From Thermodesulfobacteriota bacterium (GTDB lineage: Bacteria; Desulfobacterota; Desulfobacteria; Desulfobacterales; UBA11574): a stretch of DNA of 64,000 bases. The notes beneath the pieces were generated by a model. That model did no database searches. It was not told where the DNA came from and saw only the letters and a program-made list of their open reading frames with translations. Of this stretch, positions 36,919 through 38,470 are shown piece after piece (within the stretch, counting starts at the first letter, position 1; each line of letters opens with the position of its first letter). The translations under genes were made by a program, and so were the position numbers. The stretch is taken from the NCBI GenBank assembly GCA_042573625.1, contig JBHPCZ010000001.1, forward strand, positions 12,859-76,858. The letters run 5' to 3'.

Positions 36919-38121
36919 ATGGAAAAAATTAAGCAAAATAAAGCCGACTGCGGAAAAATCCAAATGCCCTGTTCGTGTGGTGAGAAATCCGATTTAGAGC
37001 CGCTGTTTACAGATTCATCGGATCAGGTTTCGTGTTGCGGGTTTTCCCCGAAATCAGAAAACACCCCTTTTGAACGGCCGGGATTCAAGGTTCAGCACTT
37101 TGTAGAGACCTTTGTGAAAACACCGGCCGGCCTGATTCCCCGTGTCAAAATCGATTTAAAGCTTTCCGATATTACGGGGACGGTTAAAACACGTCTGGGT
37201 ATCGGCAGAGATAATTACAAAGTAGCGCCCGGGCTTTATTGCGTTGGGAATCCCGGATCGGATGATCCGGTTATGGTCACCGCCAATTATAAACTCAGCT
37301 TTGACATTCTTCGCAAAGCGCTCGTTGGGTTAAATTCGTGGATTCTGGTCCTGGATACCAAGGGCGTCAATGTCTGGTGTGCAGCCGGAAAGCGAACCTT
37401 CTCTACGGAAGAAGTCATTCAGAGGGTAAAAGTGTCGGGCCTGGAAAAGGTTGTCACTCATCGAGAGCTTATCCTGCCTCAGCTCTCGGCCACCGGAGTG
37501 TCGGCGCGGTCGGTTAAAAAAAGCTGCGGCTTCAAGGTCATCTGGGGGCCTGTTCGCGCCAGGGACATTAAACGATTTATAGAGGCCGGGAAAAAAGCAG
37601 ATACTTCCATGCGACGGGTGACCTTTTCCATATTAGAACGGATTGTCCTTGTCCCGGTGGAACTCTCCTTTCTCCCAAAACCAACCCTGTGGATTCTCCT
37701 GGCTGTTTTTCTGCTCTCGGGAATCGGTTCTGATGTCTTCTCTTTAAGCACGGCATGGAACAGGGGACTGTTGGCAGTTGTGGCTTACATGGCGGGCGTC
37801 TTTGCCGGCGCAGTTGCCGCACCTGTCCTGCTGCCCTGGATTCCGGGACGGGCCTTTTTCCTGAAGGGAATCCAAACCGGACTGTTCTTCGGTATCGGGG
37901 TTGTCTTCATGTTCTGGAACAACATAACCGGACTGGAGGCATTTGTCCTGCTTCTTTTTACAACAGTGGTAAGTTCTTATCTGGCCATGAATTTCACCGG
38001 ATCGACGCCGTTTACTTCTCCGTCTGGTGTTGAAAAAGAAATGCGAAAAGCCATTCCGATTCAGGTTTGCACAACCTTGGTTGCTGTTGTCGCTTGGGTT
38101 GCGTCAGCCTTCACCGGTTAA
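36919..38121 (+). CDS. hgcA: mercury methylation corrinoid protein HgcA
   Basis: Hallmark cap-helix motif NVWCAAGK (within KGVNVWCAAGKRTFSTEEV), a corrinoid-binding-domain-like N-terminal half, and a C-terminal half with about 5 TM helices. An HgcB-type ferredoxin follows immediately. Confidence 0.85.
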   Translation: MEKIKQNKADCGKIQMPCSCGEKSDLEPLFTDSSDQVSCCGFSPKSENTPFERPGFKVQHFVETFVKTPAGLIPRVKIDLKLSDITGTVKTRLGIGRDNYKVAPGLYCVGNPGSDDPVMVTANYKLSFDILRKALVGLNSWILVLDTKGVNVWCAAGKRTFSTEEVIQRVKVSGLEKVVTHRELILPQLSATGVSARSVKKSCGFKVIWGPVRARDIKRFIEAGKKADTSMRRVTFSILERIVLVPVELSFLPKPTLWILLAVFLLSGIGSDVFSLSTAWNRGLLAVVAYMAGVFAGAVAAPVLLPWIPGRAFFLKGIQTGLFFGIGVVFMFWNNITGLEAFVLLLFTTVVSSYLAMNFTGSTPFTSPSGVEKEMRKAIPIQVCTTLVAVVAWVASAFTG

Positions 38122-38179
38122 TTAAAGGAATTAAGTTTTAAAAAAAGTTTCAATTAACAAGTTCATCAAGGAAAAACAT

Positions 38180-38470
38180 ATGGAAAGTCTCAGATATCTT
38201 TCTGATGTATCAACCCTGATTATGGATACCGAGTCATGCGTGGGGTGCGGAATGTGTGAAATCGTATGTCCCCACGGTGTCCTCAAGCTGGAAAACCGTA
38301 AGGCGCAAATCATTGATCTGGACGGGTGCATTGAGTGCGGAGCCTGCACCACGAACTGCCCATCAGGCGCGCTGAGTGTTACGCCGGGTGTCGGCTGCGC
38401 CGCTTACATCATACAGACCTGGATCAAAGGAAAGGAGGCGGCTTCTTGCGGAGAGGTGGAATGCTGTTGA
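38180..38470 (+). CDS. hgcB: mercury methylation ferredoxin HgcB
   Basis: 96 aa with two CxxCxxCxxxCP motifs (CVGCGMCEIVCP, CIECGACTTNCP), the conserved GVGCAA and a C-terminal Cys pair (...SCGEVECC). Confidence 0.85.
   Translation: MESLRYLSDVSTLIMDTESCVGCGMCEIVCPHGVLKLENRKAQIIDLDGCIECGACTTNCPSGALSVTPGVGCAAYIIQTWIKGKEAASCGEVECC

Follow-up and report, generated by a model that had tools for sequence, protein, structure and literature searches.

The 64-kb stretch of DNA analysed here (hereafter, the window), which belongs to contig JBHPCZ010000001.1 of a Thermodesulfobacteriota bacterium, contains two consecutive open reading frames (ORFs) on the same strand that correspond to hgcA and hgcB, the gene pair accepted as the genetic marker of the microbial production of neurotoxic methylmercury. 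The first encodes a corrinoid-dependent, membrane-anchored methyltransferase and the second a 2x[4Fe-4S] ferredoxin. According to the ORF list they are separated by a spacer of 58 nt; both genes are intact (0 frameshifts) and each has its own start and stop codons. We are highly confident that the two ORFs form a genuine and complete hgcA-hgcB operon from a Desulfobacterales-like Thermodesulfobacteriota bacterium, an organism of the sulfate-reducer type. The species-representative genomes closest to the HgcA of the window, at 48-62% identity, are Desulfobacterales metagenome-assembled genomes (MAGs) of Desulfosarcina, Desulfonema, Desulfobacula and Desulfobacter, and hgcB lies directly after hgcA in 75 of the 80 related genome loci in which gene neighbourhoods were counted. 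The pair is already known and is not a discovery, as GenBank contains a 400-aa protein that is 100% identical to the product of the first ORF (MFC1811109.1, named "mercury methylation corrinoid protein HgcA") and a 96-aa protein identical to that of the second (MFC1811110.1, "mercury methylation ferredoxin HgcB"), both from a 94,184-bp contig of a Thermodesulfobacteriota bacterium. Since the same names are carried there by both genes, the hgcAB call made in a preliminary description of this DNA is correct but ordinary.

The identity of the genes was assessed with the curated hidden Markov models (HMMs) of NCBIfam, whose cut-offs in bits are 275 for HgcA_corrinoid (NF040863), 99 for HgcB_ferredoxin (NF040864), 285 for the fused HgcAB-like family (NF043039) and 306 for the CFeSP gamma subunit. 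The 400-aa ORF reaches 445.3 bits on the HgcA equivalog (E-value of 1.2e-133), whereas its scores on the two last models, discussed below, fall under their cut-offs. The 96-aa ORF reaches 117.6 bits on the HgcB model, which is covered in full by residues 5-96 (E-value of 1.6e-34). Such E-values rule out a match by chance, and the scores uphold the proposal of the preliminary description that these are the determinants of mercury methylation.

The architecture of HgcA is the one that had been noticed beforehand, that is, an NVWCAAGK motif in a corrinoid-binding-like domain followed by a five-helix membrane domain. The sole Pfam match of the protein is CdhD (PF03599), over residues 100-219, which include the motif. 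Its Cys154 corresponds to Cys93 of the experimentally characterised HgcA of strain ND132 (Pseudodesulfovibrio mercurii / Desulfovibrio desulfuricans; HgcA and HgcB are DND132_1056/1057, in the same gene order as in the window), where this residue is the proposed axial Co-thiolate ligand (PMC7305189, PMC11588087). The octapeptide is identical in ND132 and in 119 of the 120 best homologs, and none of the residues from N151 to K158 varies in the 59-sequence alignment (A2) on which an AlphaFold2 model of HgcA was based, so the context of the cap-helix cysteine, which the preliminary description had proposed to check, is conserved. In the model (mean predicted local distance difference test score, pLDDT, of 75; predicted template modelling score, pTM, of 0.62), a folded alpha/beta domain leads into a helical bundle, with helices at residues 238-267 (kinked), 276-303, 313-331, 338-361 and 368-396, with which five Kyte-Doolittle peaks coincide (near 243-270, 291-301, 321-323, 337-351 and 386-391). 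ND132 HgcA also has five transmembrane (TM) helices, and this C-terminal domain was essential in ND132 truncation mutants. When the model was compared with the PDB library using Foldseek, the top match was the ND132 HgcAB model (9a0b_A; 50% identity over 327 columns, E-value of 2.5e-25), with an alignment to ND132 HgcA that runs through the TM domain, while the next matches, the CFeSP structures 2YCL, 4C1N and 4DJD, superposed over the corrinoid domain only (124-150 columns). The ORF, thus, combines the equivalog match, a corrinoid domain, the N(V/I)WCA(A/G)GK signature, five TM helices and an N-terminal extension of the CC type.

The second gene likewise retains its functional residues. Pfam recognises two Fer4 motifs in HgcB, and the functionally mapped cysteines of the protein, whose importance in ND132 was established by mutagenesis (PMC7305189), are all present at ND132 numbering: 20/23/26/30 and 50/53/56/60 in the two cluster motifs, the strictly conserved Cys73 some 12 residues beyond the second motif, and a C-terminal pair. 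The latter is found at 95/96 in the window and at 94/95 in ND132, and the window protein has an additional C90, its tail being ...C90GEVEC95C96-stop. The preliminary description of this ORF as a 2x[4Fe-4S] ferredoxin 58 nt downstream of hgcA, with a GVGCAA segment and a C-terminal cysteine pair, was therefore accurate, and HgcB brings together the equivalog match, two cluster motifs, the conserved and C-terminal cysteines and the position after hgcA. A selenocysteine (Sec) read-through of the hgcB TGA, which follows the Cys-Cys pair, was considered and rejected, as the codon after the final ...CC can be TAA, TAG or TGA in the relatives, and the peptides after the stop are not conserved. In a separate observation, the HgcB sequences of three Desulfuromonadales loci (L053, L056 and L058) end in "...CDCGGSC" before a TGA, in contrast to the "...CC" before TAA or TAG of sister sequences; this TGA may encode a terminal selenocysteine or be a plain stop after a single cysteine.

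Table 1. Features of the hgcAB locus and its immediate surroundings (positions within the window)
Feature	Position	Strand	Details
Hotdog-fold 4HBT thioesterase	35867-36295	+	PaaI equivalog 33.8 bits, cut-off 118.9
GNAT	36299-36823	+	Profile match
Sigma-70-type promoter-like site	36861-36889	+	TTGACA 36861-36866, 17 nt, TATCGT 36884-36889; 10/12 consensus matches
Perfect palindrome CTTATCGT-N6-ACGATAAG	36882-36903	.	Arms 8+8 nt, 100% complementary; core TATCGT-N6-ACGATA 36884-36901
hgcA	36919-38121	+	400 aa; corrinoid-dependent, membrane-anchored methyltransferase; NF040863 match
HgcA N-terminal extension	36919-37089	+	Residues 1-57; predicted disordered, Cys-rich
C39-C40-G41 (CCG)	37033-37041	+	Codon translation; S38-C39-C40-G41-F42
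Cap-helix motif NVWCAAGK	37369-37392	+	Residues 151-158; Cys154 at 37378-37380
HgcA transmembrane domain	37630-38106	+	Residues 238-396; five TM helices, AlphaFold and Kyte-Doolittle
Shine-Dalgarno-like AAGGA	38168-38172	+	7 nt before hgcB ATG; read from sequence
hgcB	38180-38470	+	96 aa; 2x[4Fe-4S] ferredoxin; NF040864 match
First CxxCxxCxxxCP motif of HgcB, CVGCGMCEIVCP	38237-38272	+	Starts at residue 20
Second CxxCxxCxxxCP motif of HgcB, CIECGACTTNCP	38327-38362	+	Starts at residue 50
HgcB Cys73, within GVGCAA	38396-38398	+	Translation
HgcB C95-C96	38462-38467	+	C-terminal tail
hgcB stop TGA	38468-38470	+	True stop
PilZ domain protein	38548-38895	+	RxxxR and NxSxxG motifs

Two other identities would have to be considered for the pair. 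The 400-aa ORF could be a CFeSP of the Wood-Ljungdahl type (AcsC/CdhE-like), or another non-methylating member of PF03599, with a generic 2x[4Fe-4S] ferredoxin beside it; CdhD is, after all, its sole Pfam match, and the only solved structures among its sequence relatives are CFeSP large subunits, aligned over residues 68-222 (2H9A and 4C1N, E-values of ~2.4e-13). Nevertheless, the ORF scores only 73.4 bits on the CFeSP gamma-subunit model, and the match is limited to the last ~126 positions of the profile (322-447 of 450). CFeSP large subunits (AcsC/CdhE; 2YCL, 4C1N, 4DJD) do possess a corrinoid-binding Rossmann-like domain homologous to residues 68-222 of HgcA, but they add to it an N-terminal [4Fe-4S] domain and a TIM barrel, work with a methyl-folate methyltransferase partner, and lack the cap-helix cysteine and the membrane domain (PMC7305189), both of which are present in the window protein. 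As the adjacent ORF, moreover, exceeds the cut-off of the HgcB model and contains both Cys73 and the CC tail, we consider this identity extremely improbable. We also give practically no credit to the assignment of the pair to the fused HgcAB-like paralogs of the Pyrococcus/Kosmotoga type, which the literature uses as an outgroup of HgcAB (PMC7438021). Both have the corrinoid and ferredoxin modules, and this is reflected in partial matches of 211.6 and 55.4 bits; however, the former is below the cut-off of its model and far from the 445 bits obtained with the HgcA model, the identity to ND132 HgcA is 50%, and the fused proteins are single polypeptides, whereas the window has two ORFs separated by a stop codon and a spacer. 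By its HMM scores, the ORF is consequently not placed with either of the groups against which the preliminary description had advised to check it, and the pair is best described as hgcAB.

The N-terminal region of HgcA, which the preliminary description had overlooked, requires a separate comment. Residues 1-57 have pLDDT values below 50, contain five cysteines (C11, C18, C20, C39 and C40) and are left outside the NCBIfam HgcA profile, which begins at residue 73; homologs of ~400 aa align over the whole length of the protein, extension included. The CCG residues are at least 90% conserved in alignment A2, and the distance between them and the cap-helix cysteine is exactly 114 residues in ~30 loci. 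An N-terminal extension has been reported in most HgcA proteins, with a Cys-Sec motif, PCUGP, that is concealed by a UGA codon and is replaced by CC in a minority of them (bioRxiv 10.1101/2022.07.06.499078, Haft 2022 preprint). Judging by its codons, the CCG of the window is the Cys-Cys form of PCUGP, with no in-frame TGA, and the motif is thus one that was already described in that preprint. Because the window encodes the Cys-Cys extension directly, its cap-helix cysteine is found 61 residues further from the start than in ND132 (Cys154 vs Cys93), whose HgcA has been proposed to need UGA (Sec) read-through for the extension (bioRxiv 10.1101/2022.07.06.499078). As a side observation, locus L075 has an in-frame TGA in "...AEERC-U-PSSRS...", upstream of the annotated hgcA start (match frame 6001-7122) and before the conserved core; this "RCUP" looks like the Cys-Sec form of the extension.

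Although the genes themselves are ordinary, the DNA that precedes them, on which the preliminary description did not comment, deserves attention. Between the stop codon of the GNAT gene and the ATG of hgcA, there is a site resembling a sigma-70 promoter, which may be active as such, and a perfect palindrome that overlaps its -10-like hexamer (with the left arm) and ends 15 nt before the ATG. The region 36830-36905 is 91% identical to that of L081, as compared with 79-83% for the flanking coding DNA, while no conservation at all is seen in the hgcA-hgcB spacer; L081/L082 stand for the closest relative with a long contig, whose HgcA is 83% identical to that of the window. The window contains a single copy of the full palindrome. 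Additional copies of this putative operator were searched for in the window, where eight matches with up to two mismatches were found against 7.6 expected, the site at hgcA being the only exact one; an operator regulon within the window was consequently discarded, as the copy number is not above chance.

The same module is found in other Desulfobacterales. The 12-base core TATCGT-N6-ACGATA, of which 0.05 copies would be expected in the 876 kb of related loci, was found in six of them. When up to two mismatches were allowed, 25 of the 31 loci with an arsR-like-hgcA-hgcB arrangement had the core ahead of the arsR-like gene, always with a spacer of 6 nt; 20 of these 25 have at most one mismatch, where ~0.1 would be expected across the 31 regions under uniform base frequencies. 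By contrast, among the 46 loci without that gene, the core was detected only in the window and L081/L082. A perfect TTGACA precedes TATCGT by 17-18 nt in 25 of 27 homologous sites (loci L001-L062), and the consensus in many Desulfobacterales is TTGACA-17 nt-TATCGT-N6-ACGAT(A/T)-AA; the window has a perfect match to TTGACA-17 nt-TATCGT-N6-ACGAT(A/T) at 36861-36901. The operons in question, from Desulfosarcina alkanivorans PL12 (L029) and from Desulfonema, Desulfobacula and Desulfobacter MAGs, encode HgcA proteins 48-62% identical to that of the window, with the same CCG 114 residues before the cap cysteine. Between the module and hgcA, they carry genes for proteins of 88-113 aa that pass the ArsR/SmtB metalloregulator model (69-72 bits, cut-off of 55) and have an N-terminal cysteine and a CxC...CxC pattern whose spacing matches Cys26/47/49/86/88 of ND132 ArsR2, a regulator that controls hgcAB in response to arsenic and S-adenosylhomocysteine (SAH) (bioRxiv 10.1101/2022.10.17.512643). 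In the window and L081/L082, unlike in these operons and in ND132, no regulator gene lies in between and the module abuts hgcA directly.

From its position only, we infer that the palindrome may be the operator of an hgcAB-linked regulator of the ArsR/SmtB type, overlapping the -10 region, and that transcription of hgcAB would start from the TTGACA-17 nt-TATCGT promoter, with its -10 hexamer inside the palindrome and a start point predicted near 36896. A further proposal, which we offer tentatively and regard as possible but rather doubtful, is that TATCGT-N6-ACGAT(A/T) is an ArsR-like operator across Desulfobacterales and that the lineage of the window and L081/L082 lost the regulator gene from the operon while keeping the operator. 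As the arsR-like gene is not at the window locus, control would be exerted in trans or would have been lost. If the proposal is true and there is no copy encoded in trans, hgcAB would be constitutively de-repressed, and the organism would be a candidate for constitutive methylation and would offer a natural experiment on the control of these genes. An explanation of the palindrome as an RNA hairpin or as the intrinsic terminator of the GNAT gene was also considered, but it is weak (z-score of -1.49 for a 100-nt fold, and only 3 G-C among the 10 pairs of the stem), and the promoter-operator is favoured over it because conservation is observed at the DNA level and the -35 box is fixed. A scan of the window against Rfam identified one tRNA only, with no cobalamin riboswitch or other RNA element. 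No description of this operator motif was found in the literature searched, whose coverage was incomplete. A conserved promoter-operator with no regulator gene beside it is, thus, a modest but testable side finding. It indicates that the module can persist in the absence of an adjacent regulator gene, and it gives studies of the ArsR-like control of hgcAB, which is poorly understood, a concrete DNA sequence to target.

Regarding the reaction itself, the preliminary description relied on Parks et al. 2013; the mechanism has since been updated, S-adenosylmethionine (SAM) being the methyl donor (PMC11588087). Experiments with purified HgcAB have demonstrated the use of SAM, Co-thiolate ligation and two [4Fe-4S] clusters; SAM methylates the corrinoid of HgcA to methyl-Co(III), with the conserved cysteine providing the Co-thiolate, and the methyl group then passes to Hg(II) (PMC11588087). 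Additionally, Cys73 and at least one C-terminal cysteine of HgcB are required in vivo and have been proposed to shuttle Hg(II)/CH3Hg+ (PMC7305189). Since all the mechanistic residues are present in the window pair, the best-supported inference is that it would act as the ND132 enzyme does. HgcA would be anchored in the cytoplasmic membrane by its five C-terminal helices, with a cytoplasmic domain holding cobalamin and Cys154 as the axial thiolate ligand. The two clusters of HgcB would give low-potential electrons to produce Co(I), which would be methylated by SAM to methyl-Co(III), and the methyl group would be transferred to Hg(II) to yield methylmercury. In such a cycle, Cys73 and the flexible Cys95-Cys96 tail of HgcB would move Hg(II) in and CH3Hg+ out, and the CC pair in the disordered N-terminal tail of HgcA would probably also take part in this transfer.

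As both genes are intact, the organism is predicted to be a methylmercury producer. Carriage of hgcAB marks the organism behind this MAG as a potential methylator where it lives, which is useful for environmental risk inventories but routine, because the genes had been annotated before and HgcA has at least 7,965 matches among database proteins at E ≤ 1e-10. Some observations weigh against a straightforward reading of the locus. The organism is a MAG, and the expression and activity of its hgcAB are predicted only; the native physiological role of HgcAB is debated (bioRxiv 10.1101/2022.10.17.512643). The AlphaFold model of HgcA is only moderately confident (mean pLDDT 75), and residues 154-158 have pLDDT values below 50 and are not helical, so that the conformation of the "cap helix" is not reproduced by this apo model, although low values are expected there without the cofactor. 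No Shine-Dalgarno sequence can be read before the hgcA ATG, unlike what is seen for hgcB. Finally, no ArsR-like gene was found in the 64-kb window by tblastn with four regulators derived from the related loci (E-value of 1e-3; best relaxed E-value of 1.3).

Some of these points would suit the possibility that, although the genes are true hgcAB orthologs, no environmentally meaningful methylmercury is produced, whether because the operon is silent or weakly translated, because the uptake of Hg(II) is limiting, or because HgcAB has another native substrate and methylation is incidental. Apart from the missing Shine-Dalgarno sequence and adjacent regulator gene, this agrees with the very low expression of HgcAB, ~0.0004% of protein (PMC11588087), and with the response of ND132 hgcAB to arsenic and SAH, and not to Hg, in the debate on its native function (bioRxiv 10.1101/2022.10.17.512643). 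On the other hand, the catalytically mapped residues are all intact, and both the promoter-operator and the coding sequence are conserved with respect to the 83% relative. Besides, the cultured hgcAB+ strains tested so far are reported to have generally methylated Hg (Gilmour et al. 2013). Taken together, we deem the absence of meaningful production unlikely. An altogether different possibility is that the thioesterase, GNAT, hgcA, hgcB and PilZ genes constitute a new functional module, for instance one in which acyl/acetyl chemistry or control by cyclic di-GMP (c-di-GMP) is tied to methylation. These five genes are on one strand with short gaps, no terminator is predicted between hgcB and the PilZ gene, and the thioesterase and GNAT genes are also kept upstream of hgcA in L081/L082. 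Nevertheless, homologs of GNAT and PilZ were found next to hgcA in none of the 80 related loci, and a hotdog thioesterase in one of the 80, on the opposite strand; the genes downstream differ in L081/L082, with no PilZ, and the whole neighbourhood is different in a relative with 70% HgcA identity. As, in addition, the conserved promoter-operator stands between GNAT and hgcA, and the similarity of GNAT to ArsN-type enzymes amounts to 25 bits against a cut-off of 125, a new module is very unlikely. The context of hgcAB is instead a shallow, lineage-specific synteny, in which the thioesterase, GNAT and PilZ genes are neighbours by descent and not by functional association, and hgcAB neighbourhoods are known to share little (PMC7438021). 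Consequently, of the context that the preliminary description had presented as possibly undescribed, the thioesterase and GNAT genes upstream and the PilZ gene downstream are indeed present, but its novelty is reduced to this synteny, and the thioesterase must be called PaaI-like, and not PaaI, because of its score on the PaaI equivalog (Table 1).

The composition of the genes gives no signal of a recent horizontal transfer, which was therefore discarded: the GC content of hgcAB (0.50-0.54) is within the range of the genes in the window (mean of 0.48 +/- 0.03, maximum of 0.55), and hgcAB is surrounded by housekeeping genes. Elsewhere, the window is ordinary chromosome, with infC-rplT-pheST, rimP-nusA-infB-truB-pnp and a TusA/MvhD/HdrA-like/DsrE cluster that is typical of sulfur-metabolising Desulfobacterota. 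In the latter region (39031-47682), the gene for a PAS-sigma-54 activator (39031-40416, minus strand) is divergent from those for TusA, an MvhD/FlpD-like protein, two HdrA-like flavoproteins, a ferredoxin, an HdrB-like CCG-domain protein and DsrE. Positions 40579-40593, within the TusA ORF as called, match the sigma-54 consensus TGGCAC-N5-TTGC perfectly; this ORF probably begins further downstream than the call suggests. This activator was considered as a regulator of hgcAB and discarded, as the sole perfect site faces the divergent cluster and none is near hgcAB; because it is the only perfect consensus, the activator most likely serves the TusA/Hdr cluster.

Some other regions of the window can be mentioned briefly. 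A MerR-family regulator (6541-6891) is found directly after pheT and before the tRNA (6970-7042); it is 30 kb away from hgcAB and has no link to mercury. The stretch 21697-25353 encodes a TonB-dependent receptor and, after it, a YHS-domain (metal-binding) protein and a Fer4_5/NapH-like polyferredoxin, with no riboswitch detected upstream; these genes could be a metal-uptake or metal-handling set. The segment 25723-31152 has a GC content of 0.40, as compared with a mean of 0.46 for the window, and contains several ORFs without a Pfam family, together with an ECF-type sigma factor (27570-28046, minus strand) beside an AMPK1_CBM/CBM48 protein (27006-27569, minus strand) and an HTH_3 protein (30058-30444). 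On the minus strand, 58136-60946 encodes a protein of 936 aa with ~13 WD40 repeats from about residue 300, and none of the best 25 of the 67 Pfam families matched covers its first ~300 residues. Also on the minus strand, 53263-55209 encodes a protein of 648 aa that combines a TPR-S sensor domain, a MAP3K-TRAF-binding-like region and a C-terminal adenylate/guanylate cyclase domain.

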